Source of the DNA: a virus
Lineage: Duplodnaviria; Caudoviricetes
Virus record (IMG/VR): IMGVR_UViG_2928595623_000002
Coordinates: 8,170 to 72,169 of that record
Length of the DNA stretch: 64,000 bases
Reading direction: 5' to 3' (one strand)
The position numbers and the translations under genes were made by a program. Below the pieces are notes generated by a model. It saw nothing but the letters and a program-made list of their open reading frames with translations. It made no database searches and was not told the DNA's origin. Below, piece by piece: positions 6,726 through 64,000 of the stretch; the first letter of the stretch is position 1; every line of letters starts with the position of its first letter.

Positions 6726-6728
6726 GTG

Positions 6729-45756: not shown

Positions 45757-45861
45757 TGCCCCTCCCGCCACACCAAATGTGTGGATCTCGTTGGTCCGAC
45801 ATTTATGGGTTGTACCAGAGGAAAAGTAAATGAAGGTTAACCATGCCGGACCTAAAGTCGC

Positions 45862-46110: not shown

Positions 46111-46162
46111 GGGTCGCCTCGAATCGAATTCGAGCCTCAGTTTAGGTCACTTTGAACGCCGT

Positions 46163-46378: not shown

Positions 46379-46516
46379 CGGTCATCTCCTTGTTGATGGA
46401 GATACCATCGCTCCGGGCTGCGGTTTCAGCCAGCAAAGGCCTTCCGGTGTTGCCGCCAAAGTGAAAGGCTTTTGCTAGCTTCGGTCTGATATTGAAGACG
46501 TGAGCAAGAGTATTGC

Positions 46517-47332: not shown

Positions 47333-47470
47333 GATTTGTTAACCTCGGTCTGTCAGAGCCTCCGAGCCGCTTTGCGGCCGGGTGCGACGGAATAAGGCTT
47401 GTCCTCTGTCGGGCGGGGCCGGACGCCAATCTAGGCCCGCCACGAGCGAATTAACGCTCGTCACTCGTCA

Positions 47471-47953: not shown

Positions 47954-47956
47954 GGC

Positions 47957-48870
47957 TCACCTCCGGTGCGTGGTGCCGCTTAGATAACTGCGATTGATCG
48001 ATTGGCCGGCTGCCGTAGCGGTGACATAAAGCCGAAATGTCGTGGAGGCGCCCGATAGCGAGGCCTTGGCGATGGTCCGCGAGACTTCGAAGAAATCGGC
48101 CGCGCTCTTTTGTACTGTCGGCCAGATGAAATAGCTGTTGCCTGAGCCGTCGCGCAGTTCGACGGTGAACGTCGCCGTCGCTCCGCTGGTGTTTTTGAAA
48201 CCCAGATGGATCTCGACTGCATCGCAATCGGAGCCATGTTCGACCAGCACAGACTCGACGAGGACCTCGGTGGTACCGATCGTCTTGGCGGTATTGGTCG
48301 CCGACTGATAGCGCTGGACGAATTCCTGTGACAACACCTTGGAGAGTACGATTGCATTCTCGGCGATGAAGCCGGTGACGGCGAGACCTTGGGTGACCGT
48401 TACCCCCGCGTCATTGTTCGGTCGCTTTTCCGACCGCCTACCTGATTTTGAGACCAGAACCACCCAGTATTTATAGGTGAAGCCGAAAAGGCCTGAGCCT
48501 CCAGTTTGCCCATAGTTGATGAAGGAACAGCCATAGGCGGGGTATTCGCCGAACAAGGTCACGGAGGTATTGTAATCTAGGCCCGTGCCGCCATCAGTTA
48601 TGATCAGTGCGTGATCATAGTCTTCATCGGCCGGGACATCCCATGCCAGGACATGGCAACCACGGCCAGAAAACCCGAAAAAATTGACTGCAGGTACTAC
48701 GGTATTGTTGCGCTTAGGCGGTTTGACACCAACGCTCGTATAGTCTGACCAGGCTCCGACTATGTTGATGAATGAAAGCGCGCGGCATCGTGCTTTATGG
48801 TATTTCAGGGCGCTGGCCTTGAAGTCGGTAGTCAGGTCCACCGAGATAAAAGATCGCCATCTGGTATATT
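47957..48870 (-). pseudogene. C-terminal remnant of tail tip/fibre protein
   Basis: No RBS; Fn3-like segments; begins at a deletion junction. Confidence 0.55.
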
Positions 48871-49200
48871 GTAGGCGCGGGCGGCATTGATCATCGCCGA
48901 GTTGAGGCTTGAAACCGGTATCGAGACCTTGCGGACCTTGAGCGACATTTCCATCGGGATCGACGGGATTTTGATCCGGTCGCCGATGCCATGATAGACC
49001 CGGTTGACCACGGCTCCTGTGTCCGGCCGGATGACCGGCACCGTCATGGCCGTCTGGCCGGTCCAGATCCCGATCGTCTCTTTGACCGAGGTCAGCTTGT
49101 TGATGCCGGTCAGCCAGATGAAATAGCGCGGGATGATGATGCCGGTCGATCGGGCAGCCTGCAGCGCTGCATAAGTGTTTGTCGATACCGAAAGCACCAT
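48832..49200 (-). pseudogene. Truncated minor tail protein
   Basis: IGIWTG...YHG.G; appears cut off at AARAYN. Confidence 0.55.
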
Positions 49201-49859
49201 CAGAACACCTGCACCATCTTGAGGCTGCCGCCGGGTGTCAGCTGGCCCTGACCGGTGCCCGCCTCATAGCCGTTGGCGATAAGCCGCCAGAGCGGCGACG
49301 GCCGCGCAAACTCGACGATATCGTTGACCGCAAGGCCCGGGCTTACATGAGGCCGCACGCTCACCCAGCCCAACGTCTCGCCGGCACCATTGGCCTGCGC
49401 ATCTGAGGTGATGCGATGATAGGCGCGGTGGACCGGATCGGTGCCGATATCGGCATGCCAGCGGTCGCCGGCTGTGAGCTGGTAGCCGCCGGGAAGCCCC
49501 TTGAACCGGACGCGCTTGTTATCGGCGGCAATCTCGGCGATCCTGCAGGTGCCCGTATGCGCCTTGATGATGGTACCGCCCGGATCGGCGATCGGATATT
49601 GCAGACGCGGGTCGTACATATAAAACCGACCGATCACGCCGTCGAGCATCTCGATGCGGGCCTGGGCGGCGGCGGCCTGGGCGTGGGTCAGCTTGGGGTC
49701 GATCGTGATTTCGGCCCGCCAGACCGGATCGGCAAGATCGGCCGCGAGATCGTCGCCGGCACCGGTCTTTCCGGAATCCTCCTGATAATACTGGATCCAC
49801 ATTTTAACCTGGTAGTAGTCCAGCTGGTTGGCCAGATCCTGCAAGCTCAAGGTCGCCAT
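49200..49859 (-). CDS. Distal tail protein
   Basis: Follows TMP; YDPR..YP..DP. Confidence 0.65.
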   Translation of the reverse strand: MATLSLQDLANQLDYYQVKMWIQYYQEDSGKTGAGDDLAADLADPVWRAEITIDPKLTHAQAAAAQARIEMLDGVIGRFYMYDPRLQYPIADPGGTIIKAHTGTCRIAEIAADNKRVRFKGLPGGYQLTAGDRWHADIGTDPVHRAYHRITSDAQANGAGETLGWVSVRPHVSPGLAVNDIVEFARPSPLWRLIANGYEAGTGQGQLTPGGSLKMVQVF

Positions 49860-49860
49860 A

Positions 49861-52800
49861 TCAGCCGCTCCATCTCGCATTCGGATCGCGGCGCCAGGCC
49901 TCAATCATTTCGGGGAACGATGCCACCCAGGCGCGATCGCGCTCCTCAAGAGCGGCGCGCGTGCCCTCATTGGCCTGGCGCAGGATCTCCTCGTTGGTGG
50001 TGCCGTAGATGTGGAGCGTGTGCGACGTCGATAGCGCCATGCGCATCTCGCCGCCGGATTGACGCACCGCGCGCGGTACCACGTTACGGACGCCGAGGCG
50101 TCCATCGGCGCCGCGCGCCAGCGGCATGATTGCCTCTTCGCCGGCCTCGCCCATCAGGCCTGTGCGACCGCGTGACATCGGAAAGAATGTCGGCCGATCG
50201 ACGACACCGCCATTGGCGAAAGCAACGACGGAGCCCGAAGAGAAGGCAGCACCATCCGCAAAGAGGTTCGAAAAGATGCTGCTGAAGATCGACGAGATCG
50301 CCGAACCGATCCCGGAAACAGCGCCGCCGATGCCGGAGATCAGCCCGGAGAACAGGCCACCGGTCGAGTTGATTGTCGTTGCCGGCGCGGGTGTCTGAGC
50401 CGGCAGCGCCTGGCTCGTCTTGTTGATCGATGACAGCAACGATCCGGAGCCGTCCGTAAGAGCCTTGGACGCATCGACCGAGGAGGATGCCATTTTGTCG
50501 ACATTGGCGGCGGCATTGGTGCTGGTGGTCGAAAGCTTGGCCAGCTGGCCGTTGAACTTGTCGACATATTGCCGGCCGGTCGTCCCCAGCACGTCAGCCG
50601 AGTTGGCACCCTGTGCCTGCGGTCGGCCGGTAAACCAGACCGAGGCCGCGTCCTGCGGGGTGCCGTATTTCGCCATCGATGCCGAAAACTGCTGGTTAAA
50701 GACAGCATCCTGTGCCGCCGGATTTGCCAGAAACTGGTCGGGCGTCATGCGCTGGCCGAGCGCCTGCTCGGTCCATGGGCCGATATTGTTGCCCATGACC
50801 TGATATTTGCCATAGGCGCGGTCGCCATTGGTCCAGGGACCGAGGGCGCCATAGTTGCCGCCGCTCTCGATCGCTGCGATCGCCTGCTGGTACATTGCCA
50901 TGTTGCCGGTCGTCGCAGCGGCAATGTTGGTGTTGGCGGCATTGCCAAAGAGCGAGGTTGTGCCAAGTCCCGGCAGGCCGAGCGGCGAACCATTGATCAT
51001 CACCGTGCCGGCGGTCACGGTCATGGCGGCCGTCGAGGTGGTCGAGAGCGGGCTTGCACTCTTGCCGGCGAATAGGTCGCCAAGCGTCGGCAGATTGGTG
51101 CCGAGCAGGTTGTTTTTAAGTGGATTGGCAAAGGCCAGCTGCTGGAATGTCGTCAGCAGCGTCGAGGTCACGGATTTGAGGCTGTCTTTCAGCGATCCGG
51201 TCCCGACCACCAGCGAGTCGATCGCGCTGGAGCCTGCATTCTGCACCGTCGACCAGGCGCCTTGCTGGCGCTCCAGTTCGAGCTTGAGGTTGGCCATCTG
51301 GGCCGCATTGGTGCGAAGCTGCTCGGCCTCTTTCGACATGGTCGCGAGGCCAAGTTCGCGGATCTTGATTTCGGCCTCATAGGCGGCAATGGCGCGCGCC
51401 CGCTCGTCGGCCGATTTGCCGACCAGCGAGATTTCGAGCTCGAGGCGGCCGATACTGTCGCTTTGGGTCTTGAGATAGTCCTGTTGCTTCTTGATCTCGC
51501 GCTCGAGCTCATCGGCCGCCCGCTTGCGCTCCTGCTCGAGCTTCTTGTTGAGCTCTTCGTTTGGGTCATAGTCGAGGCTGTTCGGGCGGCTTGCCGGCAC
51601 GGCGGGCACGGTCAGTTGACCGTCCGAGTTGATGACGGTCGGGCTTTCGTTTTCGATCCGGAGGCGGGCGTCCCGGTAGACCCGTTCGATTTCGCGGACG
51701 CCGGCCTCGGTGCGACCGAGCGTCGAGCCGAGGAGGTCATTATAGATCTTGTCGAGATTGGCCTTGTCGTTGGCCGTGACCATGTTGCCGATGCCATCGG
51801 ACATGGCCTTGAGCTGCGCGGCGTGATCACCACCGGCGACGCGGTTTTGAATGGTTTCGAGCTCGCGGTACTTGTTGGCCAGATCAACGAGCTTATCGCC
51901 CAACAGGATGACCTGGTCGGCCTGGCGCTGGAAGCCGGATTGCTGGCCAAGTTTTTCCACCTCGGCCTGGAAGGCGGCGAGATCCGGTTTGATCCCCGTT
52001 GCGATCTGAGCCCGCAATTTGTTGATCGGGCCGGAGAAGGCCTCGAACCCGGAACCAACCTGCAGAGCGTCTTCTGCCATCGCCCGCAATTGCTCTGCGA
52101 ACGCATGGACATCGCCGCTGGCGCCGGCCATCTTGAGCGACGTTGTAACCGCCTCATCGATCTTCGCATTGAAACCGTCGAGGTCGGCTGCGCCTGCGGC
52201 GGCTGTATCGAGCAGGTACCGGATCGAGTCGGCAAAGACCTTGTTTGTTTCTGCCGCCCTGGCCAGCGCACCGAGATCGCCGGTCGTGCCGTTCGTTGCG
52301 TCTGTGGCCCCTTCGGCAACAGCCGCAAACATTGCCGCATATTGCTCGCGCATTGCGGAACTCAGGCTCGTGAGGCTGTTGCGCAGCGAGGCGTCGGAAA
52401 AACTGTCGCTCGGCCCGAAATTAGCGCTCCTGGCCAACTCGCCATAGGTCGCCTTCAGCGCATCGAGCGTTGCCCGATGCTTGTCGAGCGCCGCTTCAAA
52501 ATTGTCGACGCCTTCCTCGCCGGATGCGAACCACTGCGCTGCCGCCGTACCGAGTGCGATCGAGCCGATCGTCAGCAGGCTCATAGGCGAGATCAGCGAG
52601 GTTAGCGCCGCGCCGATGCCCTTGATTGGCGAGTCCATCGACGCGAAGACCGCCGACAACTGGGTACCCTGCTGAAGCGCAATCTGGAGCGGCGACATCC
52701 CCATGGCGGCTGAGACGCCGATATCCTGAAACTGGGCGGCAATATTGGCCGTCTGAAACCCTTGTGCGCCGCTGACGGCTTGGCCAGGCATGGCGGCAAC

Positions 52801-53208
52801 CGCAGCATTGCGACCACGGATCGCGGCGATCGACGCATTGGCTGCAGCCCGTTCGCGCTCCATCGCAGCTGTCATTTCCGAGGCCGAGATCGCTCCGATC
52901 TTGTGGGCATCACGGATCGCCGCGACCTCTGTGCGATAGCGCTGCACGGCAGCGAAGAGCGGATTGTACCTGGCGCGCAGCGCGTCCATCTGAGCGCCGT
53001 AGGCGGCGAGATCGTCGGCGCGCAGATTGCTGTTGGCGCCAATGTTCCGGACACCGGTTTCCGCCTCGATCATCGCCTGGATGGATCGTGCCGTCTTCTG
53101 GGCGGTCTGGCCGACCTTGTCGATCGCGCGTTCGGCCTCGGCGCCGCCAGCCTTGGCGCCGCTGGCATCCGCGCCGATCAGGATCGACAGTTTCATAGCC
53201 TGGGTCAT
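49861..53208 (-). CDS. Tape measure protein with lytic transglycosylase-like domain
   Basis: NIAAQFQDIGV; AIAAIESGGNY...YGKYQ; GLMGEAGEEAIMPL. Confidence 0.88.
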   Translation of the reverse strand: MTQAMKLSILIGADASGAKAGGAEAERAIDKVGQTAQKTARSIQAMIEAETGVRNIGANSNLRADDLAAYGAQMDALRARYNPLFAAVQRYRTEVAAIRDAHKIGAISASEMTAAMERERAAANASIAAIRGRNAAVAAMPGQAVSGAQGFQTANIAAQFQDIGVSAAMGMSPLQIALQQGTQLSAVFASMDSPIKGIGAALTSLISPMSLLTIGSIALGTAAAQWFASGEEGVDNFEAALDKHRATLDALKATYGELARSANFGPSDSFSDASLRNSLTSLSSAMREQYAAMFAAVAEGATDATNGTTGDLGALARAAETNKVFADSIRYLLDTAAAGAADLDGFNAKIDEAVTTSLKMAGASGDVHAFAEQLRAMAEDALQVGSGFEAFSGPINKLRAQIATGIKPDLAAFQAEVEKLGQQSGFQRQADQVILLGDKLVDLANKYRELETIQNRVAGGDHAAQLKAMSDGIGNMVTANDKANLDKIYNDLLGSTLGRTEAGVREIERVYRDARLRIENESPTVINSDGQLTVPAVPASRPNSLDYDPNEELNKKLEQERKRAADELEREIKKQQDYLKTQSDSIGRLELEISLVGKSADERARAIAAYEAEIKIRELGLATMSKEAEQLRTNAAQMANLKLELERQQGAWSTVQNAGSSAIDSLVVGTGSLKDSLKSVTSTLLTTFQQLAFANPLKNNLLGTNLPTLGDLFAGKSASPLSTTSTAAMTVTAGTVMINGSPLGLPGLGTTSLFGNAANTNIAAATTGNMAMYQQAIAAIESGGNYGALGPWTNGDRAYGKYQVMGNNIGPWTEQALGQRMTPDQFLANPAAQDAVFNQQFSASMAKYGTPQDAASVWFTGRPQAQGANSADVLGTTGRQYVDKFNGQLAKLSTTSTNAAANVDKMASSSVDASKALTDGSGSLLSSINKTSQALPAQTPAPATTINSTGGLFSGLISGIGGAVSGIGSAISSIFSSIFSNLFADGAAFSSGSVVAFANGGVVDRPTFFPMSRGRTGLMGEAGEEAIMPLARGADGRLGVRNVVPRAVRQSGGEMRMALSTSHTLHIYGTTNEEILRQANEGTRAALEERDRAWVASFPEMIEAWRRDPNARWSG

Positions 53209-53588
53209 TGTTCGACCTCATTCAAAACGGGCAGGGCAGCGGCTTCCATGACCCGAACATTTTCCCAGATGTCTTTCGACCAGGACTCGAGGCGGGCGAT
53301 GACGTCGACAGCGGAATAATCGAGCCCCAGCCAGAAGAGACCGGCCATTGTGCCGCTGACGCGCCATTGCGTTTCGCAGCCAAGGAAGGCGATGAGCGAT
53401 GGCCAATTGGCAGGATGGATCGGCATCCGGTCGGTCTCCTCGTCGCGGGTTTGGGGTTTGCGCGGGATCTGCAGGCCCCAGGCGGCTAAATCTGACCTCA
53501 TCTGATCGTTGAGCTTGACAGCCTTGGCTCGATCGGCGCGGCCGCACTTGGCATGAGCCCAGGCAGCGGCCGCCTCGGTTAGTTTTTT
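53205..53588 (-). CDS. DUF1799-like -1 frameshift extension of tail chaperone
   Basis: A AAA AAC slippery site; -1 frame open into MRSDLAAW...TQWR...GLDY. Confidence 0.7.
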   Translation of the reverse strand, partial: KKLTEAAAAWAHAKCGRADRAKAVKLNDQMRSDLAAWGLQIPRKPQTRDEETDRMPIHPANWPSLIAFLGCETQWRVSGTMAGLFWLGLDYSAVDVIARLESWSKDIWENVRVMEAAALPVLNEVEQ

Positions 53589-53989
53589 CTCAGGCCCTCG
53601 CCGGAGGCCATCGCCTGATAGGCATCGAAAATTGCCTTGCGAATGTGCGGGCGCTTTAGCGCCTGGCGCAGGATGGCCTCGGAAAACGGCACTTCTGCCT
53701 TGCGTTCATCCTGGATGCCGCGCCAGTCCGAGATCACGCCAACGAAACTGTCATCATCGAACTGCTCGATTGCCCGCATGCGCTCGTTGGCGGAACTGAG
53801 CGAGGTTACGGACGCATCGCCCTCGATGAGCCGGGCGCGGGCATCATTCTGAGCGCGGGCCTCGTCACGATCGAGCAGCCGGAACAGCACTTCGAACTCA
53901 TAATCGGCAAAGTGACCCGGGATGGTTTCGTCCGGCTCGCTCACCTTGACCGGCCACCAGGCCTTGATCTCTTTTTTCAACACAAACAT
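53579..53989 (-). CDS. Tail assembly chaperone
   Basis: WWPVKV..P; DW.GI.D..VPFS; ends RKN. Confidence 0.8.
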   Translation of the reverse strand: MFVLKKEIKAWWPVKVSEPDETIPGHFADYEFEVLFRLLDRDEARAQNDARARLIEGDASVTSLSSANERMRAIEQFDDDSFVGVISDWRGIQDERKAEVPFSEAILRQALKRPHIRKAIFDAYQAMASGEGLRKN

Positions 53990-54046
53990 TTCAGGACCTC
54001 AAAAGACGTTTAAAGGGGGAATGAAGCCGGTTTGAGCCGGCACCCA

Positions 54047-54314
54047 TCACTTGCAGACGATGGTCAGTTCGTTGTTGCCGGCGGCGCCGGGCTGCAGGAT
54101 CAGCGGCAATGTGTCGGTGAGGATCTTCTGGGACTGGCCAATCTTGGTGCGACCGATCTGGGTTTTGGGGCAGTTGATCCGGACGATGTTGCCGGCAACG
54201 GTGCCATGTTCGAAGAACATCATCCCGGTCGTGTGGGCCTTGGCGATCGCCAGCCAGTTCACTTCGCCGATCAATGCTGCCTCCAGCACGACTTCACCGG
54301 TGACGCGGCGGTCA
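54047..54314 (-). pseudogene. C-terminal remnant of tail tube protein
   Basis: DRRVTGEVVLEA...HGTVAGNIV...GNNELTI; 5' part deleted. Confidence 0.7.
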
Positions 54315-54576
54315 GGCGGTCATCGATCGTGCGGATCGCGCGGTGGATCGACTCCCGAGAACGACCGCTATGTTCGGCGATCCGCCGCCTGGGCCATGCG
54401 AAGAACTGGTTCATCAGGTGGATGACGATCTGGCGGGCGAGCGCTGCGTCGAAATATTCATGGGGCGGCTCGATGATCTGCCGAACGGTCAGATGCGGAA
54501 AGGACTCTCGAACGGCGATGTAGCTGCAGGTGATATGCAGGCTATAGCGTTCGTCTGAGGAATGGACGTTGATCAT
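54315..54576 (-). pseudogene. Early Mu gene with DnaA-C-like HTH, truncated at deletion
   Basis: LARQIVIHL...RRIA...GRSRESI.RAI. Confidence 0.5.
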
Positions 54577-54863
54577 TTCAGCACCGCGATTTCCGAAAGC
54601 GCCCAGAGCCCGAGAGCAAGATCCACCAGGACCACGCCGAAGATGAGCGAGAACAGGCAGCCCTGGTTCTGGCTCGACGGGCTGAAATGGTTGTCGATTT
54701 CGCCATGTCGTTTCGACATTGGCGCCGCTGAGCGAATGCGCGATGTTTGCCGGGTGGCGAGGCCATCGACGACGGACAGCCGGGGCTGAATGATGGCCCT
54801 GCCGGTCGGGGAAGCCCGGTACCGGATGCCAAAGGCTAGAACGGCGCAAAGGTCTCGCCACAT
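54573..54863 (-). CDS. Hypothetical membrane protein
   Basis: C-terminal TM; coupled after ner. Confidence 0.35.
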   Translation of the reverse strand: MWRDLCAVLAFGIRYRASPTGRAIIQPRLSVVDGLATRQTSRIRSAAPMSKRHGEIDNHFSPSSQNQGCLFSLIFGVVLVDLALGLWALSEIAVLK

Positions 54864-54864
54864 A

Positions 54865-55179
54865 TCAAGCAGCCTCCAGCGAAGGCGGGCGGCGGCTGTG
54901 CCGATAGTTCGCGGTGGGCTGGGGCGCCAGGCGACGACCATCGGCATGATACCGCGACCGCCAAAGCAGTTCCGGCCGGGTCTTGAGCGCGGCGGCGATC
55001 GCCCGCTCGCCGGCAAGGTGAGGCTCGTGGACCGCATTTCCTGCGGTACCGGAAGGGAGGTTATAGGCCTTGTCGATGTCGGAGAGGGTTAGCTTGGCTA
55101 CAATGAGCTTGGACTTGATGCGGGCAACCTCTTCGAGGCGGCGCCGTTCGGCCTTGTCGTCGTGTGCAACGGAGGGCAT
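54865..55179 (-). CDS. ner: Ner/Nlp-like DNA-binding protein
   Basis: GERAIAAAL...P..LW.SRY...G. Confidence 0.8.
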   Translation of the reverse strand: MPSVAHDDKAERRRLEEVARIKSKLIVAKLTLSDIDKAYNLPSGTAGNAVHEPHLAGERAIAAALKTRPELLWRSRYHADGRRLAPQPTANYRHSRRPPSLEAA

Positions 55180-55306
55180 AAGTAATCCTTAATCCAGATT
55201 GGGAGGCCCTGGCCGGCCTCCTTTTTTGGGCTGTTGAAATCTGCGAACACAGAAAGGACTACTCCAAAAATGGGTATTTAACAACCCTGTTTTTGGGTTA
55301 TTTTGA

Positions 55307-55822
55307 ATGGGCGACGATAAGAACAATCTGAAATTGATCGGAGATCGGCTGACCTTGGTAAGGAAGACGCGCGGCTTTCCGTCTCGCGAGGCCTTCGCTG
55401 AGGCATTCGGAATCCCAAAGAGAACGCTTGAAAAATACGAGCAAGGCGTATCGGAATTGCCCACAAGGCTGCAGCAGTGGCTTGCAACTGTTCATGGCGT
55501 CAATCTGACGTGGTTGATGACTGGAGCGGGAGACATGTTCGATGATCCGTCCAAAGCCCCGCCGCCGGCTGCCAATTTCGATATCGTTCTACTCCAAAAG
55601 CTGCACGACGCAGTTCAGGCCGTCTATGTCGAGTGCAAGCGAACGCCGCCGCCGCGCGCGATCACGGCTGATGCGGGCGAGCTCTATAACGAGTTGCTCG
55701 GGATGGTCGGGGATATTCGGGACAAGGCCGTCGTAACAGCAGTCATTCCGATCTTGCGGGACCGTTTCAAGGAACGGATCTCCAAAGCCGAGCCAGGGTC
55801 GACCAAAGCCGTGGGCTCATGA
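55307..55822 (+). CDS. Mu c-like XRE repressor
   Basis: HTH FAEAFGIPKRTLEKYEQG; WLMTG.G.M; divergent from ner. Confidence 0.8.
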   Translation: MGDDKNNLKLIGDRLTLVRKTRGFPSREAFAEAFGIPKRTLEKYEQGVSELPTRLQQWLATVHGVNLTWLMTGAGDMFDDPSKAPPPAANFDIVLLQKLHDAVQAVYVECKRTPPPRAITADAGELYNELLGMVGDIRDKAVVTAVIPILRDRFKERISKAEPGSTKAVGS

Positions 55823-56299
55823 TCGTACTGCCGGCTGACTTCTGCCATTAATGCAATTGGTTGAAGCACAATCAATCGCGCTGATTAAGATTGTAATTTT
55901 ATCGTTAAGGTCGAAAATGCAATGAGGAGCAACTAATATTAGGGGTTTGTTTCTGAGCGTAGACAGAACTGGTTAGTGCGTTTGGGCGGTGGTGGTGGTT
56001 ATCGATTGGCGGGTTGAGGTTGAGCTTGTTCGCGTTAAAGCGTTAGGTTCGGAAGCAAGAAATCATCGATAGTTGGCCAAACGGAGTTATGGGGCAGACA
56101 ATAAAAAGGTTCGCTTCACGCCCCGGGTCGGCCATGCGATTGGAATTTTTTGCGGCCTGAGATGCTGATATACTGCTACTTTCTAATCCACCGTATACAA
56201 GCCCTATGGCGCAAGAAAACAATACGTTTAGTCAGGTAGTGCTTCACTTGCCGGAATTCCATCATAAGATGTGTCGAAGGGACGGATTCGGGAGGTGGC

Positions 56300-57289
56300 A
56301 TGTATCTTTGCGGTGAAGGCATCGATGAAATATTGATCGAACTCTATCCGCTCCTTCTCGCGGGCGGGGTGGCTAACGTTGGCAGCCGCGGTGAAATGCG
56401 GGAAGAGCTAGGGGTAACGTTCCGTATGACGAAACCTAGGGCTCGGATCAGTCGATCACAAGATCGTGGCAAACCGTTTAGCGCCCTAGGGGAACTACTG
56501 TGGTATCTTGGAGGTCTCAATACGCTTGAGTTCATCAAGGAATACATCCCTGACTACGCAGAGGATGCTGAAGAAGGTATATTGGCTGGAGCCTATGGTC
56601 CACGGATCCATTCGATGCGCGGGAGCATCAACCAGCTTGAGAACGTCACCACGCTTCTAAAAGCCAATTCTACATCCAAGCGTGCAGTAATACAGCTCTA
56701 TGACGCTGCGGACATAGCAGTTCATCACAAGGAGATTCCGTGTACAACTGCATTGCAATTCATTGCGCGGGACGGCCGTCTTCACATGTCCACGACGATG
56801 CGGTCGAACGACGCGTACAAAGGCCTTCCGCATGACGTGTTCTGCTTCACCATGCTCCAGGAGATGATGGCAACTCGCCTTGGCCTCGATCTGGGTGAAT
56901 ACATTCACTTTGCCTCTAGCATGCATGTATATGACGGCTCGATCGAAGCGATGAAGCAGTATGTGCGCGAAGGACATCAGAAGACAGTACAGATGCCCGA
57001 AATGCCCCCGGGCGACGCATTCTCCATTACCGACATCTTGTTGCGGGCTGAGGGGGAGATCAGAGCGGGAAAGAAAATCAGCGCGGCCGACTTCTCGAGC
57101 GAACACTATTGGGCTGACATAATTCGTCTTCTTCAGGTATTCTGGGCTACTAAAAGGCGGAATGCGCCGGGTTTTGAAGATCTCACCGAGCTAAAAGCCG
57201 AATTCCAGGACGATGTTTATCGAGCCTATCTGGATAGACGATTGAAGACCCGAATCCTGCGAGACGCCAAAATAATTGGAGCAGTTTGA
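56300..57289 (+). CDS. Thymidylate synthase/dCMP hydroxymethylase-like enzyme
   Basis: ELLWYL, GAYGPRI, IPCT, RSND, GLPHD, HVY. Confidence 0.88.
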   Translation: MYLCGEGIDEILIELYPLLLAGGVANVGSRGEMREELGVTFRMTKPRARISRSQDRGKPFSALGELLWYLGGLNTLEFIKEYIPDYAEDAEEGILAGAYGPRIHSMRGSINQLENVTTLLKANSTSKRAVIQLYDAADIAVHHKEIPCTTALQFIARDGRLHMSTTMRSNDAYKGLPHDVFCFTMLQEMMATRLGLDLGEYIHFASSMHVYDGSIEAMKQYVREGHQKTVQMPEMPPGDAFSITDILLRAEGEIRAGKKISAADFSSEHYWADIIRLLQVFWATKRRNAPGFEDLTELKAEFQDDVYRAYLDRRLKTRILRDAKIIGAV

Positions 57290-57290
57290 C

Positions 57291-58208
57291 ATGTGGCCGA
57301 CTAGGCAGCAACAACGTGAGCGAATTTCCAAAGCTCTTCATATCCATTCGGTCAACATCCGGCACCTTCCCGGTGTGGCGGAGAACCTTGGGAGAGACAC
57401 GCTCGCAATGCAATTCGTCGCAAGCCTGCGACGCGAAGATTATTACAGGTACGTCCAAGAAAAGGCCGTTTCGGCAAGAAAAGCAGATCCGAATTCAGGG
57501 ACTTTCGACGCGGAGCGGGCAGTTGCATATCATATGCAGAACGGCAACGTCGAAGAGGCCGCATGGCTTCTATTTCTTATGACGCATTTCGCCCGGCCAG
57601 CGTCGTCCGGATGGCTCCGACTGCAACAGGTATACGGCCGCCTTGGGACGGGCGTTTGGGACTGGCAGACTGTATCAAATAATCCTCTGGCAATGATTTC
57701 TTGGCTCGCTGCGAATTGGATGAGCATCGGCGGGAAGTTCGGAAATCATCGGAAGTACGAAAGCCTGCGTCCGAATTCCAATAGGAGCTTCAGCGACGTT
57801 CTGCTCAGCTACCTAGGCTGGATAGGACCTGCCGGACACCAAGCATTTTTCGCGGCGAAAACACAGCAGGCGGGCAACAATCCCGCGACTATATTTGATG
57901 CTCTCTATAGGAGCATGAATGTGACAACCTTTGGGCGCCTTGCGAAGTTCGACTACCTGACACTGATCGGGCGGTATGGAATTGCTCCAGTCGAGCCGGG
58001 ATCGGCCTATTTCAAGGGTGCAACGGGCCCTGCATCCGGAGCCCGGCTTCTGTTCACCGGGGCACGCACAAGTTCTGCAACGGAAACGCAGCTCCAGATC
58101 TGGGTGGACGAGCTCGATGCCAGTCTTCACGTAGGGATGGCCGTAATGGAGGATGCCTTATGCAATTGGCAAAAGAGCCCAACCGCTTTCGTCCATTTCA
58201 AAGGATAG
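57291..58208 (+). CDS. aGPT-pyrophosphorylase clade 3-like protein (HhH-glycosylase fold)
   Basis: EA.WL.FL.THF, FGNHRKYESL, FGRLAKFDYL, TGP..GARLLF, MEDALCNWQK. Confidence 0.75.
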   Translation: MWPTRQQQRERISKALHIHSVNIRHLPGVAENLGRDTLAMQFVASLRREDYYRYVQEKAVSARKADPNSGTFDAERAVAYHMQNGNVEEAAWLLFLMTHFARPASSGWLRLQQVYGRLGTGVWDWQTVSNNPLAMISWLAANWMSIGGKFGNHRKYESLRPNSNRSFSDVLLSYLGWIGPAGHQAFFAAKTQQAGNNPATIFDALYRSMNVTTFGRLAKFDYLTLIGRYGIAPVEPGSAYFKGATGPASGARLLFTGARTSSATETQLQIWVDELDASLHVGMAVMEDALCNWQKSPTAFVHFKG

Positions 58209-58214
58209 TAGCCC

Positions 58215-59315
58215 TTAGACTGTAGCCGGATTGATCTGGCTCCAGTCCCATGTACGCTTTAGATAGTTCAGCTTGTTGGGTTCTACCATTCCGCGATGCT
58301 GCATTTGGCCGACAGTCAGGCCTGGAGCCACTCCGATCGAGACACTGAACCGTACGATATCGTCACGTTCGGGTTTGATGCGTTGGAATTCTGACTCGCG
58401 AAGCGGAGGAATTACGCATTCCGCCGCAAACTCATTCGCTTCGCTTTCCCGATCGGCGTCACCAGGCAATGCATCGCCATCGACGAAGGTGTTCGCTTTA
58501 TGAAGCACCAGATGTCCGATTTCGTGGAAAACAGTAAACCAGAACTGGTCATCGCGCTTGTAGCGAAAGCTCAGCAAAAGCATTGCCTTGTCGGGATCAA
58601 CCATGCGTATCGCTCCGCTTGCACGACAGCCATCCGGAGCCTTCACGACAACTAGAGCAACTCCAGCTTCTGCGCATAGTGTTTTTAGCTTCGGCAGGAA
58701 CAACTGCGGATGGCGAATCATGGAAAGCTTGCGGATTTCTCGGAGTCGATCCAACAAATTTTCGGCGCTCCATACTCGCGTCTGGACCATATCGGCTTCG
58801 AGTTCACCACGCCGAAGCCAGAGAAGGGTCGCATCTTCTTTTGATGCGTAGGTCTTCGAGGTGCGATAATCCGTTTCTCCGACCAGACGTCCATAGCGGC
58901 CAGCCCAAGATTGTGCATCCGGGACGTTGAAGAAAACTAGTCTCCTACGCAGCTCAGCAGCGCGGCGTTCCAAAGACAGCTTTCCTCGCGCCTTCGGGCC
59001 AGGGGCAGGCAGGCGTAACAACAGCTCCTCTTGACCACTTTCTTGAACTTGAGAGACTGCACGATCGACCGCGATATCGAAATTCTCCTGCCGCTTCAGC
59101 CAGAATTTTGCTGTCGCGCCAAGCATCGCCGAAAGCGTCGACGCCGTGGGACCATCGATTTGCCGCGACCCGTCTATCAGGCCGCGAACGGCGTCAAGGC
59201 CATCCTCGAAGCTCTCAGCAAGATCATGCGCGGAAATGTTTCGTTGCTGCATAATTACACGGATCGAGTCGCCAGGTTTCGAAAACCAATTGGCCGTAGC
59301 GTTCTCGTCAATCAT
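58215..59315 (-). CDS. HigA-like HTH fused to ImmA/IrrE metallopeptidase
   Basis: PGD.I..., FWL.RQ; FWFTVFHEIGH; E.EANEFA. Confidence 0.85.
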   Translation of the reverse strand: MIDENATANWFSKPGDSIRVIMQQRNISAHDLAESFEDGLDAVRGLIDGSRQIDGPTASTLSAMLGATAKFWLKRQENFDIAVDRAVSQVQESGQEELLLRLPAPGPKARGKLSLERRAAELRRRLVFFNVPDAQSWAGRYGRLVGETDYRTSKTYASKEDATLLWLRRGELEADMVQTRVWSAENLLDRLREIRKLSMIRHPQLFLPKLKTLCAEAGVALVVVKAPDGCRASGAIRMVDPDKAMLLLSFRYKRDDQFWFTVFHEIGHLVLHKANTFVDGDALPGDADRESEANEFAAECVIPPLRESEFQRIKPERDDIVRFSVSIGVAPGLTVGQMQHRGMVEPNKLNYLKRTWDWSQINPATV

Positions 59316-59638
59316 GGTACTTCCGATATGGCTGTGAGCTTCACAAATTCAACACTGGCCCAGTCAATTCGTCCAGCGTCGGTCAGTGCGACGTTTTGGT
59401 CCACGTTCACGAACGTCGCCCTGTACCTTGAACCGATCGCTACTTCAAAGCTCTCATCGCTGTTAATGGTCACGTTTCCCCCAAGAAATTCATGCCACTC
59501 GTGAACATTTTCGAATGCCTCCGCGTTGGCGAGTTCGGTCACTAGGCGGTCAGCATACGTTCTTCCAAGCCGCTGCTCAGCTATATCCCGATTCAGGCAA
59601 CAGTGCTTAAGGCCGGCCGTTCCATATGAAATCTGCAT
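59312..59638 (-). CDS. HigB/RelE-like toxin
   Basis: MQISY...L...C; G..A..L; IDW..V..V.L..I; upstream of and overlapping HigA-ImmA. Confidence 0.6.
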   Translation of the reverse strand: MQISYGTAGLKHCCLNRDIAEQRLGRTYADRLVTELANAEAFENVHEWHEFLGGNVTINSDESFEVAIGSRYRATFVNVDQNVALTDAGRIDWASVEFVKLTAISEVP

Positions 59639-59708
59639 TCGTGATTGAGCGTCCGCTTCCGCAATATTCAGTGTTGAGGCTTGCGCCGCGCTGTTTGACT
59701 GGGTTTTG

Positions 59709-60074
59709 TTATTGCGGCAGGGCTGATCCTTGGGCTTTGGCCGCTTGCTTCGCGCGGATGCGATCGATGTGTGCCCAGTTTCTATCGAGCTCGTGCTCTC
59801 CCGCTTCGTCCATACCAACCCCTGAGGCGTTGCAAAGTGCCGCCAACGTCACCATCACTCCGCCAACCTCCTGGTGGATATCGCCTGGCGGTCTTCCGAA
59901 CACATATTCCACAAGTTGGTGAGCTTCTTCCTTAGTACAGGCGTTCGCCTGCGCGAGTTCGAGTGATTCCTCAAGGAAGCGATGATTACGCTCGCGCAAG
60001 TCAAGGTGCGCCGACTTCGGGAAACACGCGACAACCCACTGCCGCACACGGTATTGAAACGAGTTGGACTGCAT
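59709..60074 (-). CDS. MazG-like all-alpha NTP pyrophosphatase family protein
   Basis: FQ.RV..W...CF; RFLEE.LEL; QEVGG. Confidence 0.55.
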   Translation of the reverse strand: MQSNSFQYRVRQWVVACFPKSAHLDLRERNHRFLEESLELAQANACTKEEAHQLVEYVFGRPPGDIHQEVGGVMVTLAALCNASGVGMDEAGEHELDRNWAHIDRIRAKQAAKAQGSALPQ

Positions 60075-60485
60075 CTCTACTCCTCGAACACGGTTATAGA
60101 AGACACTGAGTCTGAGATACATGCAAGTTCAAGGAGTGCAGCTAGGTCCTCTAGGCAATATAGGTTGTGCATAAGGTGTAGATTTGCCTTGCGACCGACC
60201 TGGTTCTCTTTCGACAGATAATGCATTCTGAATAGCCCCTAGATTTGCAGGCGCCTTTTCCCATAAATTTTGAGGCAGGAGAACTACATCGGCAAAGTCA
60301 GTTTCACGGAAGAGGCAGGCTAAGGGCCATGTTCTCAAGCCTGAGGGACCCATGGCTCGCATGTTTAATATCTCCGCCTTGATTCACGCCTATGATTATG
60401 GATATCGGTTTGATCGCGAGAAACTCCAAGTACAGGCAGTGATTTGGGGGCTCGGGGCGGCAACACTAGTTTTGGGGATCGAGAC

Positions 60486-61361
60486 ATGGCGGTTTCTCCG
60501 AAGAGTTCGGATACTTCGACTGGTGAGCAGAATAAGGCTGTCGTTGAGGCTTTGGCGAAGCTAGCAGCTCAAAACGAAATTGTTGCAAACGTTCAAGCGC
60601 AGATCGGGCATATGAATGCATCTATGGCCGCGTTTATGTCGCGTTTGGGCCAGCTTATGGCCGTCGTGTCTATTGGTGTAGGTCTCGTTGGAGTCTGGCA
60701 ACTTAGTCAACAAAACCAACGGATCACGGACGCGGTGGCTCAATCAGAACGAAACGAGCGTGAGCGAGAGGAGAGGTTTAAGAAACTCACTGAGTTTTGG
60801 TCTGTGTCGGAGATTATAATAACAAACCAAAGAAATCTGACAGATTACATCTATGCTGTTCCTGAATTGGTAATGACGCCTCTTGGTGAAAATGCTAAGG
60901 TGTGGAGTGCGAAGATATCGTTTAATGTGAAGTTAGAGTTTAGAGGATCGACGACAGCTAAGTTGAATTCATTAAATATCATATTGAACAGGGAGTTTGT
61001 TGATAATTTTTACCTGGGAAATGAGCAAACTAGGAGGATGGAGGAGGCCGAGAAGACCTTCGACCTTGGATCTATAACCATGGTTAGCGGGGCGCCGAAG
61101 AGTCCCGTAATTAACCTTAGAGTTCTAGTTGGAAGTTGTGAAGCAGCGAAAGCGCATTTGGAAAAGCTTAGTCGGCTGGATTTTTTTGGCGACATAAGAA
61201 TTTCTCCAGTTTTTGAAGTGGCAAATCAGCCTCCTACCGCGCAGATGTTCAAAGTAAAATTGGTGATGGACCCGTCCATACTTAATTGTGATATGTTAAC
61301 CGGAAAGGTATCGCCAACGATTTCCATGCCATCAAATTCCAGCGATCAATCACCAAACTGA
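60486..61361 (+). CDS. Low-GC single-TM cargo protein
   Basis: TM flanked by coiled coils; AT-rich codons. Confidence 0.55.
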   Translation: MAVSPKSSDTSTGEQNKAVVEALAKLAAQNEIVANVQAQIGHMNASMAAFMSRLGQLMAVVSIGVGLVGVWQLSQQNQRITDAVAQSERNEREREERFKKLTEFWSVSEIIITNQRNLTDYIYAVPELVMTPLGENAKVWSAKISFNVKLEFRGSTTAKLNSLNIILNREFVDNFYLGNEQTRRMEEAEKTFDLGSITMVSGAPKSPVINLRVLVGSCEAAKAHLEKLSRLDFFGDIRISPVFEVANQPPTAQMFKVKLVMDPSILNCDMLTGKVSPTISMPSNSSDQSPN

Positions 61362-61855
61362 CTGATGCTCTGACTTTGACTTAGCAAAATGTCGTTTCGG
61401 GTAGAGGAGGGCAGCCTATACCCTAGCCCTCTATCAATGGCGGGAAACCTTTTTTATCGCTGCGACCTCTATTTTGTTGAATTCGTTCTTTAAATTACGA
61501 TTATTCGTGTTTTCCGCCACGGTGCGGGAATCCCATTTGGCTTTTTGCCGTGTTTTTTGGTGGAGCAGGCTGGGTTGGTTCGCGGGTCTGAAGTTCTGAA
61601 CGCTTGGTTTTCAATGGCTTAAAGATGCCTTGAAGCCTCTTTGAGGATCAGGCCGCAATTTTGAGCCCGTCGTGCTCGAGGGCGTGATTGCAGGTGCCTG
61701 GGTGCGCTGCCGGCGTCTGCGATATCAAATTCAACGATCGCGCCTCTCGCGCAGAGATCCCCGCAAGGCCGAGATTTTCAGGCCTTTCCCGCGCCTTCCC
61801 GATTAATCCCGGTTATTCCCGGTTTGTCCGGATCTCTGTGTCAAACAACACTCGT

Positions 61856-63020
61856 GTTGCAGCAAATCGTGCGCGGGCAAAGGCGGTCGAGGTAGATGCT
61901 GCCTTCCAGAAGGCAAAGCTGGGACTGCCTAGTGAGCTGACGACGGCTTCCAAAGTAGCGATCAGCCAACTCGAAACAGCGGCGCGACTTTATCTGTACG
62001 ACCAAGAACGCGCTCATCGAGGTTCAACGCCCGACGAAAATGACCAGATGGATGCTTCCGAAATGCTGACCTATCTCGGAAGCGATTATGAAGCCTGGGC
62101 CGGAATGATTCACAAGCTGGCGGAAGAATTGGCAGACAATTACAAGCTGCCCATAAAGCCGGGCGATAAGAACTGGCTTGAGTTTATCGACCTCCTCCAC
62201 CGCGCAGAAGTTGAGCATCAGCATCGACGGCTAGATCGGGCACGCCATCTGCGGAGTTTTAAGACCCATGATAAGTTCTTTGAAGAAGTGTACGACGGAG
62301 CCGCCAGACCAAACATTCAGGTCCTGACAGCGAATACCCTCGGAGACGTTATCAATCGTTTTGAGAGCGATCCCCACAGAAAACACCTCACGGAAAGTGC
62401 AGGAAAAAAATACATTATTCCGTTGGCTGCATTGCGCGAAGTGGTCGGTGACGAGATCCCGATTTCAGCAATCACACGGGCCCAATGCGCCGAGACAATA
62501 GATATCATTGCGCGCCTACCATCAAATTATACGAAATACAGAGAATTCAAAGGGAAGACGCTACGAGATATAAGTTTGATTTCCGAAGAGAGCGGACGGA
62601 AACTTTTGGCGAGAGGCACTGTCGAAGTATACGCTCACCACCTCTCCGCATTTTTCAACTTCGCGCTACAAAAGGGGCTTTGCGAAACAAATCCCGCAAC
62701 GCGATTAACACCAAAAGGCGTCAATAGCGAAGGGGGAAGAGTACCATTTCTTCCCGATGAACTGCAGCGGATGATTAACGGTCTACCCGAATGGTGTGAT
62801 TGGGAGCGTAATGGGCGGTTTTGGGTGCCGATGATAGCGCTGTATTCAGGTATGAGAATAGGCGAGATCATCTGGCTTACCCAAGAGGATCTGCAGATCG
62901 ATAGTGGTCATCATGTGTTTGTTCTCACGCGAACTACCGACCGCAGTTTAAAAACACCGGGCTCAGCTCGCAAAATTCCGATACACTCGACACTTATTTA
63001 TTTAGGTATTTTATCATTGA
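61856..63020 (+). pseudogene. 3' part of tyrosine integrase, truncated by IS3 end
   Basis: SGMRIGEI and SLKT...R.IP.H present; HxxR and catalytic Tyr missing. Confidence 0.85.
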
Positions 63021-63327
63021 TGACCTGAGACCCAAATTCCCTCCAGTTTTCGGGAGAGTCTCGGGTTTCTAATCTGGCCTCATGCGGCCTGTTTTTCCAT
63101 AGCTATTCTCATTGCAAACTCGCTGGGGGTTATGTTGCCCAGCGACGAGTGGGGTCTGTTCCTGTTGTAATCCTCCTTCCATGTGGTGATGACGGCTCTG
63201 GCTTGGGTGAGCGACGAGAACAAGGTCTCGTTGAGGCACTCGTCGCGGAAGCTGCCGTTGAAGCTTTCGACGAAGCCGTTTTGCATCGGCTTGCCGGGTG
63301 CGATGTAGTGCCATTCGACCTTGCCTC
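63021..63327 (-). mobile_element. IS3-family remnant (terminal repeat plus 3' end of orfB)
   Basis: TGACCTG.. end; [23 protein letters not shown]...YN..RPHSSLG. Confidence 0.85.
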
Positions 63328-63436
63328 AATGGGAAAACTGAGAATGCAAAACATTCGTCCCACACAAATCATTCTTGCTTTTTGGAACGCTTCGTCCCAA
63401 TATGTCTTGGATGCTATGAAACATTTGGGGCGAAAA

Positions 63437-64000
63437 ATGATAGTCGGGTACGCGCGCACCTCAACAGTCGAACAGGTTGCCGGGCTGGAGGCTCAGGAAA
63501 GAGACTTGGCTGCAGCGGGAGCCCAGAAGCAGTTCAGCGAACGCGTTTCCTCTGTTGCGGAACGAGCCGAACTCAAAAAGGCGCTCGACTACTTGCGAGA
63601 TGGAGACGTGTTCGTCGTCACTAAACTGGATCGGCTCGCTCGGTCGGTACCGGACTTGGTCAGCATCGTGGAAGTAATTGCCGCGAAGGGCGCATCGCTG
63701 AAGATCCTGAATCTTAATCTCGATACCACCACCCCGACCGGAAAACTCATGTTGAACCTGCTGGGGAGCATTGCTCAGTTCGAACGCGAACTCATGCTTG
63801 AGAGGCAAAGAGAAGGAATCGCTAAAGCAAAGGCCGAGGGAAAATACAAAGGTCGGGCGCCAACTGCCCGGAACAAGACTTCTGAAGTCTTGGCCCTGTC
63901 TCAAGACGGAATAGGACCGGCAGAGATTTCTCGTCGCTTGGGCATCGGCAGATCCTCCGTCTATCGCATCTTGGAAAATGCCGACGTTTCTGGATCATAA
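63437..64000 (+). CDS. Serine recombinase (resolvase/invertase) with HTH
   Basis: GYARTST.EQ, VTKLDRLARS, FERELMLERQREGI. Confidence 0.93.
   Translation: MIVGYARTSTVEQVAGLEAQERDLAAAGAQKQFSERVSSVAERAELKKALDYLRDGDVFVVTKLDRLARSVPDLVSIVEVIAAKGASLKILNLNLDTTTPTGKLMLNLLGSIAQFERELMLERQREGIAKAKAEGKYKGRAPTARNKTSEVLALSQDGIGPAEISRRLGIGRSSVYRILENADVSGS

Follow-up and report, generated by a model that had tools for sequence, protein, structure and literature searches.

A horizontally spread cassette joins a predicted cytosine-type hydroxymethylase and an aGPT-Pplase3 protein to a PD-lambda-2-like peptidase operon

The window analyzed here is a 64,000-nucleotide stretch of a virus of the Caudoviricetes (Duplodnaviria), positions 8,170 to 72,169 of the IMG/VR record IMGVR_UViG_2928595623_000002. 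Our subject is a block of five intact genes at window positions 56300-60074, lying toward one end of a Mu-like element, in which a two-gene operon on the plus strand faces a three-gene operon on the minus strand. The first operon codes for a member of the thymidylate synthase (TS) superfamily and a protein of the aGPT-Pplase3 family (hereafter Pplase3); the second codes for a fusion of a helix-turn-helix (HTH) domain to a metallopeptidase, a small protein and a MazG-like protein.

The cassette and its distribution

The genes of the block are tightly packed. A single base pair separates the TS-like gene from the Pplase3 gene, the start of the HTH-peptidase gene and the end of the small open reading frame (ORF) overlap by 4 nt, and direct reading of the sequence places 6 bp between the stop codons of the Pplase3 gene and the convergent HTH-peptidase gene. 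An earlier note, made from the letters of this DNA, had given these coordinates, spacings and convergent arrangement together with the motif RSNDAYKGLPHD of the TS-like protein, and ORF and sequence reading showed all of them to be correct. The features are as follows:

56208..56299, plus strand: conserved stretch preceding the TS-Pplase3 operon, with which the conserved cassette of ~4.0 kb begins on the left
56300-57289, plus strand: TS-like gene, 329 aa; TS superfamily, predicted cytosine-specific 5-hydroxymethyl-(d)CMP synthase of the MilA / T4 gp42 type
57291 (ATG) to 58208, plus strand: Pplase3 gene, 305 aa; aGPT-Pplase clade 3, AADT/PUGT-like with a helix-hairpin-helix (HhH) glycosylase fold; predicted Cys-dependent C5-methylene group transferase
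58206..58217, no strand: tail-to-tail junction of both operons, with 6 bp between the stop codons and no terminator
58215-59315, minus strand: HTH-peptidase gene, 366 aa; HigA-type HTH fused to an M78 (ImmA/IrrE) metallopeptidase, PD-Lambda-2_B-like
59312-59638, minus strand: small ORF, 108 aa from the likely start at 59638; predicted HigB/RelE fold
59709-60074 (alternative start 60122), minus strand: MazG-like ORF; candidate all-alpha NTP pyrophosphohydrolase, accessory
60101..60113, minus strand: palindrome AGACTCAGTGTCT, candidate operator, 28-40 nt upstream of the MazG-like start

Loci for comparison were fetched with an alignment of 40 diverse Pplase3 relatives (A1), chosen from two protein searches: one returned 3,328 relatives in 90% clusters at an E-value of 1e-5 or better, and the other, among representatives at 50% identity, 567 clusters. 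Scanning 185,579 species genomes gave 548 pattern matches, of which 474 proved to code for a Pplase3 relative, and the best 80 loci of these were analyzed for synteny by tblastn with the window proteins and then by jackhmmer (iterated profile search). The HTH-peptidase gene is convergent with and adjacent to the Pplase3 gene in all 80 by tblastn; the TS-like gene lies upstream of Pplase3 in 78 by tblastn and 79 by jackhmmer; and the small protein is encoded in 75 by jackhmmer. All the loci in which the TS-like or the small-protein gene was missed are truncated where their contig ends. With 45 of the 80 loci having it, the MazG-like gene is optional. Antisense shadow ORFs of the cassette aside, clustering of all flanking ORFs returned no other gene family present in more than five of the 80 loci. 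Neither these clusters nor the Pfam scans reveal a kinase or glycosyltransferase in the conserved block, in agreement with the earlier note, which had seen neither.

Viruses contribute few copies. Just 27 loci were recovered from a collection of 2.9 million viral contigs, many of them at contig ends and with identities down to 35%; they retain the TS-like gene in 26 cases, the peptidase in 26, the small protein in 24 and the MazG-like gene in seven, with the missing core genes falling at locus ends. A tblastn search of 50,697 GenBank phage records gave no Pplase3 match. The Pplase3 gene is also found on 10 plasmids, five of them conjugative, and the four-gene core is complete on plasmids of Pantoea, Arthrobacter and Leptospira. 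When 300 genomes of one bacterial family were scored, seven had a Pplase3 family member, each in single copy. Overall, most cassette copies sit on large chromosomal contigs without recurrent neighbors from mobile genetic elements (MGEs). Taken over the genome and viral sets, the same gene order and orientation recurs in more than 100 independent loci. This rules out a chance neighborhood, and the co-occurrence of the genes, which the earlier note had named as a check on its proposal, is strongly borne out. The cassette is a sporadic, self-contained accessory unit of ~4 kb that has spread horizontally.

The boundaries of this unit are visible at the nucleotide level. When window positions 55000-62000 were compared with the loci by blastn, homology to close relatives was confined to 56208-60218: it starts at 56208 in three loci (L004, L008 and L009), at 56232 in L005 and at 56243 in L007, and its right limit falls at 60205-60218. 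The block upstream of the TS-like gene is conserved among these close relatives. The GC content is 0.51-0.56 over the cassette vs 0.60-0.65 in the tail-gene region on its left. On the right, the palindrome AGACTCAGTGTCT has one match in the window compared to none in 100 shuffles, and its core GACTCAGTGTC recurs at the same offset in eight of 68 loci (L003-L009 and L068), solely upstream of the MazG-like operon. The palindrome is thereby kept in the closest clade only, where it is a candidate operator.

The two operons meet in a characteristic manner. Over 79 loci, the median distance from stop to stop is -4 nt; once the rearranged L030 is set aside, the operons of 62 of 78 loci overlap or end at most 10 nt apart. 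In the window, no terminator-like site is found near the junction at 58206..58217. Stops that are this near or overlapping would force a 3' antisense overlap of the operons. This tail-to-tail junction is the sole conserved physical link that we found between the two.

Several copies depart from the standard arrangement. In five loci, an extra conserved gene coding for 265-286 aa is placed between the TS-like and Pplase3 genes, overlapping or abutting both neighbors (7136-7996 in L090, 7159-7956 in L095, 7171-7998 in L097 and L098, and 4187-4990 in L112). Its four distinct copies share 44-53% identity; they yielded no Pfam match and no match in the PDB with either a single sequence or a profile. 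In an ESM Atlas neighbor cluster of this gene (score 0.92), PF03167, the uracil-DNA glycosylase (UDG) family, is carried by 29% of the proteins, an unconfirmed lead only.

Among the degraded copies, L082 features a 422-aa ORF (6702-7970), which we take to be a transposase, separating the TS-like gene from Pplase3; in L006 the TS-like gene is interrupted by about 1.2 kb (about 6047-7258); and on the Leptospira plasmid L112 the Pplase3 gene is broken into two frames at about 5730. We also observed a 635-aa metagenome protein (P0271) that combines the TS-like and Pplase3 domains in one chain (PF00303 + PF18746); since the two genes are just 1 bp apart, this fusion may be either genuine or the product of a one-base assembly error. 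One fusion of an integrase to Pplase3 was likewise found. Both are single sequences and possible assembly or frameshift artifacts, to be given little weight.

The predicted enzymes and the opposing operon

The TS-like protein matches PF00303 with 91.6 bits, and its relatives are annotated in RefSeq as 'thymidylate synthase'. Its best match in the PDB is MilA (5b6d/5jnh; E 6e-41 over residues 30-292), with the aligned region including the C-terminal extension, whereas the best canonical TS reaches a weaker E of 4e-20. All eight listed NCBIfam ThyA models fall under their cut-offs, the best being NF002497 with 86.1 bits vs a cut-off of 327. To interpret the active site we used the residue criteria for specificity in the TS superfamily laid out in PMC5175136 (sections 7-8) and PMC13326640 (sections 24 and 28). 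In ThyA, Asn177 is the determinant of uracil specificity, and position 143 is held by a bulky hydrophobic residue (PMC13326640). In HMMER alignments, the last Asp of RSNDAYKGLPHD aligns with the Asn of the GVPFN segment of canonical TS chains, thereby placing Asp179 at the position of E. coli Asn177, and an Asp is found here in 79 of 79 relatives. The position of Leu143, three residues before the catalytic Cys, is occupied by Glu145. The Asp at the former position indicates a cytosine substrate and the Glu at the latter a product other than the methylated one. Further, C148, E65, H209, Y211, D179 and D171 are invariant, and E145 nearly so, in 36 TS-like sequences, such that all the residues diagnostic of a (d)CMP C5-hydroxymethylase (the Cys, Glu, His and Tyr, Asp177, an acidic residue at 143 and Asp169) are present.

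These features contradict an ordinary ThyA, which the missed NCBIfam cut-offs and the Asp in place of Asn177 exclude, and bear out the cytosine-type TS proposed in the earlier note, for which MilA is the best solved relative. A 5-hydroxy-dCMP synthase can be set aside as well: such enzymes, typified by RB69 gp48 and DLP3 gp80, have D169N as their signature (PMC13326640), and the Asp at this position (Asp171 in the window protein) is retained in 79 of 79 relatives.

With respect to the sugar, two further positions are informative. Ser169 occupies the position of MilA Ala176, with Ser in 79 of 79 relatives; at the position of MilA Lys133, 53 of the 79 have Arg and 26 have Lys, the residue also found in the window protein. 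The A176S change shifts the preference of MilA toward dCMP, and changes at both positions are tied to deoxyribose preference in the same paper (PMC5175136). The enzyme shares with T4 gp42 the Asp at the position of Asn177, the acidic residue at that of Leu143, and the Ser and mostly Arg at the sugar-selecting positions; in overall sequence, it resembles MilA more than it does canonical TS. From these residues we predict that the TS-like enzyme is a 5-hydroxymethyl-dCMP synthase that may retain some use of CMP; the public annotation of its relatives is probably wrong about the product.

The aGPT-Pplase clades were reportedly defined by Iyer et al. in 2013. The assignment of the window protein to clade 3 was confirmed by hidden Markov models: PF18746 (aGPT-Pplase3) matches with 402.6 bits (cut-off 25) over profile positions 3-279 of 279, and PF18724 (ADDT) with 240.1 bits. 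An AlphaFold2 (AF2) model built from A1 (pLDDT 95.0, pTM 0.91) was compared by VIA-align with 48,161 chains. The top match of this wide search was 8z2m_A, PaMx11 gp46/PUGT, with a Z of 10.6 and an rmsd of 4.3 over 219 aligned residues; next, at Z 5.6-8.6, came DNA glycosylases of the HhH type together with DUF2419, an enzyme of queuine salvage. The structural search thus upholds the earlier view of a partner with a DNA-glycosylase (HhH) fold. In 40 Pplase3 sequences, E287, D288, C291, N292, W293, K295 and H153-R154-K155 are invariant; the spacing of E287 and C291 is that of PUGT Glu243 and Cys247, and their position near the C-terminus also fits. PUGT Cys247 attacks the pyrimidine, and Glu243 and Thr244 lie at the metal site (PMC11472151); the AADTs of M6 and ViI are inactive once the conserved Cys or the neighboring Glu is mutated (PMC8989533). 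Thus, the fold of the 'glycosylase-fold effector' in the earlier note stands, but the role probably needs revision: judging by the model and the Glu-x3-Cys motif, Pplase3 more closely resembles the group transferases of the PUGT/AADT type, which depend on a Cys, than a glycosylase effector.

The protein convergent with these enzymes combines a HigA-type N-terminus (TIGR02607, E 4.7e-7) with a Peptidase_M78 domain (PF06114, E 4.6e-10). Its strongest PADLOC match is PD-Lambda-2_B (PDLC03982; E 8.6e-22, residues 13-340), which covers nearly its full length, with weaker matches to capP (E 4.6e-9) and RmrA models. The residues H264, E265 and H268 of the HExxH motif, along with H272, are invariant in 37 sequences. 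ImmR-ImmA and CapH-CapP are switches composed of an HTH repressor and an M78 protease. The cassette protein shares with them the HTH, the M78 domain and its invariant HExxH motif, and differs in that its domains are fused in one protein, paired with a HigB-fold protein and accompanied by no separate repressor gene.

The small protein of the window has no Pfam, NCBIfam or PADLOC match and no PDB match by profile, and none of 46 family members matches any HigB/RelE Pfam model. Its AF2 model (pLDDT 94.7) returned a Foldseek list made up almost entirely of toxins of the RelE/ParE superfamily (HigB, YoeB, RelE and ParE), headed by P. vulgaris HigB (prob 1.00, TM 0.57-0.71, E 5.6e-3). The 'HigB' label given to it earlier accordingly lacks a sequence-level family match, and the predicted fold agrees with it at the level of the RelE/ParE superfamily. 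In the 46 sequences, Gly25 alone is invariant, and conserved His, Arg, Tyr or Lys residues are absent; with just one invariant residue, the protein is therefore considered catalytically degenerate. The proposed pairing of a HigA-ImmA-type fusion with a HigB-fold neighbor is borne out by the PD-Lambda-2_B match and the Foldseek result together.

The MazG-like protein of the window has no Pfam match. Its family features an invariant ERxHRFLEExLELxQA motif and later Glu residues, and its profile finds the pyrophosphatase 4qgp (E 0.0039) and YpjD (E 0.11) weakly in the PDB; one of 23 relatives matches each of the Pfam families MazG (0.0037), PRA-PH (0.1) and MazG-like (0.11). The label is hence tentative, with the weak 4qgp match and this single relative in its favor. 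The matches of the protein to phrog_14118 (E 2e-53) and phrog_8593 (E 3e-50) are partial, these PHROG profiles being longer and of unknown function. Many phages of Caulobacter, Pseudomonas, Rhizobium and Xanthomonas encode 'hypothetical proteins' that share 50-61% identity with it. The gene is found stand-alone in 83 phage records (e.g., H13 Ralstonia phage phiRSL1). Because it is both optional and a common stand-alone phage gene, we regard it as accessory rather than core, which makes the 'pool sanitizer' of the earlier note an optional part of the cassette.

A possible defense system and its rivals

The validated E. coli defense system PD-lambda-2 consists of three genes, the first of them HigB-like and the second coding for a fusion of HigA to a peptidase (Vassallo et al. 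2022, PMC9519451). Its Xre-peptidase is toxic alone and is neutralized by the HigB-like protein (PMC9519451). In both PD-lambda-2 and the present cassette, the small HigB-like or HigB-fold gene is directly upstream of the fusion; in the latter, however, a TS/Pplase3 operon is joined tail-to-tail instead of a third gene. That operon, in turn, recalls the thymidine hypermodification pathways of phages, in which a dUMP hydroxymethylase and a 5-hydroxymethyl-dU (5-hmdU) DNA kinase act with an AADT of the aGPT-Pplase2 clade, such as M6 gp51, ViI gp247 or PaMx11 gp46/PUGT (PMC8989533, PMC11472151). Both pair a TS-family C5-hydroxymethylase, a predicted one in the cassette, with an HhH-fold protein having a Glu-x3-Cys motif, which in the phages is a Cys-dependent transferase and in the cassette a predicted one. 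The cassette differs in its cytosine-type TS, in the absence of a DNA kinase and of pyridoxal-phosphate, radical-SAM or FAD tailoring enzymes among the clustered flanking ORFs, in the Pfam clade of its transferase-like protein (PF18746), and in its residence in bacterial chromosomes and plasmids rather than in GenBank phage records.

Our favored reading, which we put at a probability of about 0.5, is that the cassette couples a PD-lambda-2-like protease/HTH switch to a kinase-less pathway of cytosine-nucleotide modification and probably acts in phage defense. The analysis establishes the gene content, conservation, residue signatures and predicted folds; from these we infer each catalytic activity, whether modification takes place on the nucleotide or on DNA, how the two units are coupled, and a role in defense. 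The modified-cytosine anti-phage system proposed in the earlier note survives to the extent of the gene unit, the cytosine-type TS and the folds, with the MazG-like protein recast as accessory and Pplase3 as a probable group transferase.

In such a system, the TS-like enzyme would turn dCMP (possibly CMP) and methylene-tetrahydrofolate into 5-hydroxymethyl-(d)CMP. Cys291 of Pplase3 would then attack C6 of the 5-hydroxymethyl-cytosine, the oxygen substituent would be expelled via an exocyclic methylene, and another nucleophile would be added by the same enzyme, yielding a further-decorated cytosine on the free nucleotide or in DNA. The opposing operon would supply a PD-lambda-2-like switch of the toxin-antitoxin (TA) type, formed by the catalytically degenerate HigB-fold protein and the HigA-HTH/M78 metalloprotease with its intact HExxH motif. 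T4 dCTPase gp56 supplies dCMP from dCTP to gp42; in a comparable manner, the MazG-like pyrophosphohydrolase candidate, present near the enzymes in about half of the loci (45 of 80), could feed dCMP from dCTP. The T4 route differs in its dNMP kinase and glucosyltransferases, which the cassette lacks, and the MazG-like gene is optional and in the opposite operon. We envisage that the protease/HTH switch responds to infection or DNA damage, upon which the enzyme pair may block replication of the invader, either by depleting or poisoning its supply of dCTP or by marking DNA.

More tentatively, and with considerable doubt, bacteria may have redeployed the phage DNA-hypermodification chemistry as immunity: on infection, the switch would release the dCMP hydroxymethylase and the clade-3 AADT-like transferase, which would form an undescribed hypermodified cytosine nucleotide that starves or poisons viral replication or marks DNA. 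If true, this would represent a new class of antiviral nucleotide, beside the viperin products and dNTP depletion. Should the favored model hold, it would provide a function for the uncharacterized Pfam clade aGPT-Pplase3, with its thousands of relatives, show that AADT-type enzymes can do without a DNA kinase when acting on hydroxymethylcytosine, extend TA-like defense of the PD-lambda-2 type by an effector that modifies nucleotides, and possibly bring to light a new modified base or nucleotide. As the cassette is 4 kb in size and self-contained, with clear catalytic residues, its function is directly testable.

A number of observations weigh against this reading. On the side of the switch, the HigB matches of the small protein reach an E of 5.6e-3 at best, none of its 46 members matches PADLOC PD-Lambda-2_A, and the third, P4-antitoxin-like gene of PD-lambda-2 has no conserved counterpart in the cassette. 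The PADLOC check proposed in the earlier note succeeded for the HTH-peptidase, while no PADLOC model matches the TS-like, Pplase3, small or MazG-like proteins. For Pplase3, Foldseek of the model against the PDB gave no match at an E of 0.001 or better, the A1 profile finds no relative among PDB sequences, 8z2m included, and the equation of Cys291 with PUGT Cys247 derives from aligned ranges and motif spacing rather than a residue-level superposition. Chemically, no kinase emerged in Pfam scans of the five genes and no further conserved gene in or beside the cassette could supply one: without a dNMP kinase, 5-hydroxymethyl-dCMP may not reach DNA, and the lack of a DNA kinase leaves the transferase step with a poor leaving group. 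The extra gene in five loci could also alter the chemistry. No shared operator was detected among the promoter pairs of 68 loci, which have 78 8-mers in common, while shuffled pairings average 60.8 and reach up to 81; the geometry of the junction is therefore the one indication of regulatory coupling. Finally, the survey of flanking genes had no control set, so that defense genes near the cassette (see below) are an anecdote and not an enrichment.

An unlikely alternative role is that of a DNA hypermodification module of mobile elements, which would place decorated 5-hydroxymethylcytosine in the carrier DNA against restriction, akin in function to mom of Mu, with the ImmA/HTH switch activating it at induction or transfer like the ImmR/ImmA-type switches of integrative and conjugative elements and prophages. 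Such a purpose is that of the closest characterized relatives of Pplase3, the PUGT and AADT proteins, which act on phage DNA (PMC8989533, PMC11472151), and would suit both a cassette inside a Mu-like element, beside its repressor, and the copies on conjugative plasmids (five of the 10 plasmid matches) or beside genes of type IV secretion systems (T4SS). It sits poorly, however, with the lack of matches in GenBank phage records, the scarcity of viral-collection loci, the unconserved flanks and the location of most copies on large chromosomal contigs. Moreover, there is no dNMP kinase leading toward the triphosphate, the 35 of 80 loci without the MazG-like gene do not exclude dCTP, and a HigB-fold/protease pair akin to an abortive-infection system is unexpected in a pure modification module. 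The same TA-like architecture and overlapping genes could instead denote an addiction or stabilization module, its HigB-fold/HTH-protease pair being a TA system and the enzymes either metabolic cargo or part of the toxicity (nucleotide poisoning of cells losing the cassette), with no anti-phage role. The toxicity of the PD-lambda-2 Xre-peptidase and its neutralization by the HigB-like protein (PMC9519451), the copies on plasmids and MGEs, and the degraded copies with insertion-sequence insertions (L006, L082) are in line with this. Nevertheless, simple TA modules seldom hold two large enzymes in strict synteny across phyla, the invariant catalytic residues of both TS and Pplase3 argue for selection on their chemistry, and many TA-like modules of this kind proved defensive (PMC9519451), all of which makes us consider a pure addiction role decidedly improbable.

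The kinship of the TS-like enzyme to MilA evokes yet another possibility, to which we assign a low likelihood. MilA/MilB and BcmA/BcmB furnish 5-hydroxymethyl-CMP for the nucleoside antibiotics mildiomycin and bacimethrin (PMC5175136), and in a small-molecule pathway of this kind the 5-hydroxymethyl-CMP would be processed by the glycosylase-fold partner, for example by base release or transfer, into an antimetabolite or signal. Besides the MilA match itself, the Lys of the window protein at the MilA Lys133 position and the Z of 8.4 for DUF2419/QNG1 against the Pplase3 model speak for it. DUF2419/QNG1 acts on a free nucleotide. Against it are the Ser in place of MilA Ala176 in all 79 relatives and the Arg in place of Lys133 in 53, both tied to deoxyribose preference (PMC5175136); the absence of a MilB-type N-glycosidase and of a surrounding biosynthetic cluster; and the flanking-ORF clustering over the 80 loci, which revealed no conserved neighbor of a tailoring kind, be it a methyltransferase, a kinase or an exporter. 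The invariant Glu-x3-Cys, too, points to group transfer of the PUGT type. An ordinary thymidylate synthase lying beside unrelated genes by chance has in its favor the RefSeq naming of the relatives; the ThyA scores, the Asp for Asn177 and the synteny in more than 100 loci already contradict it, leaving it a probability close to nil.

In the literature covered, which left out the figures and supplements of PMC13092281 and Iyer et al. 2013, where the neighborhood might be shown, we found no description of the cassette. The text of PMC13092281 (DefensePredictor, a machine-learning study of 2026) names aGPT-Pplase and MazG as predicted, unvalidated defense domains, lists UDG and HTH domains among its predicted systems, and gives no mechanism or chemistry for aGPT-Pplase. 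It validates a separate system made up of a TS, a dNMP kinase, a 5-hmdU kinase and NMAD. The description of the cassette as an 'undescribed system' hence stands in that no paper on it was found, and is weakened in that two of its domains had already been predicted to function in defense.

The Mu-like element and other surroundings

In the window, the cassette has the repressor gene on one side and, on the other, an end of a Mu-like element of roughly 17.35 kb (44496-61855), which also carries tail genes, a Ner-like gene near the cassette and a CI-type repressor. The sequence CTCGT at 44496-44500 and 61851-61855 flanks ends starting with TGT, and the element splits the reading frame of an integrase, the N-terminal part of which ends near 44500 and the C-terminal part of which spans 61856-63028. 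Ends beginning with 5'-TG, a 5-bp duplication, and repressor and ner genes at one end are the hallmarks of a Mu-like element, and all of these are seen here. No transposase A or B gene was seen between ner and the tail genes, where no search aimed at the transposase was made. The element appears to be defective, with the cassette as its cargo.

The Mu neighbors (the repressor, Ner, a 305-aa membrane-like protein and the integrase) recur in just one of the 80 loci, L003, in which nine queried proteins are 100% identical to those of the window. A cassette specific to Mu-like phages is ruled out by this restriction to an identical copy. Thus, the placement of the genes 'inside the Mu end' is consistent with the repeats, the ends and the split integrase, and a tie of the cassette to the Mu element is not upheld.

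The gene for the 305-aa protein (60444-61361, plus strand) has a GC content of 0.44-0.45 and no convincing family match, and is restricted to the window and L003. Beyond the element, reading of the translations suggests that a fragment at 63080-63286 on the minus strand resembles the C-terminal part of a transposase, and that an ORF at about 63400-64000 on the plus strand, which runs off the window end, resembles a serine recombinase or invertase.

Among 132 neighboring ORFs from 35 other loci, we found Gabija in two loci, Mrr-type nucleases in two, T4SS coupling proteins in three and serine recombinases in three. An ORF on the minus strand of L059 (10426-11607), HsdS-like by reading of its translation, adjoins the cassette copy of that locus, and an annotated restriction endonuclease (L110, 2396-3277) adjoins the copy on the Pantoea plasmid.

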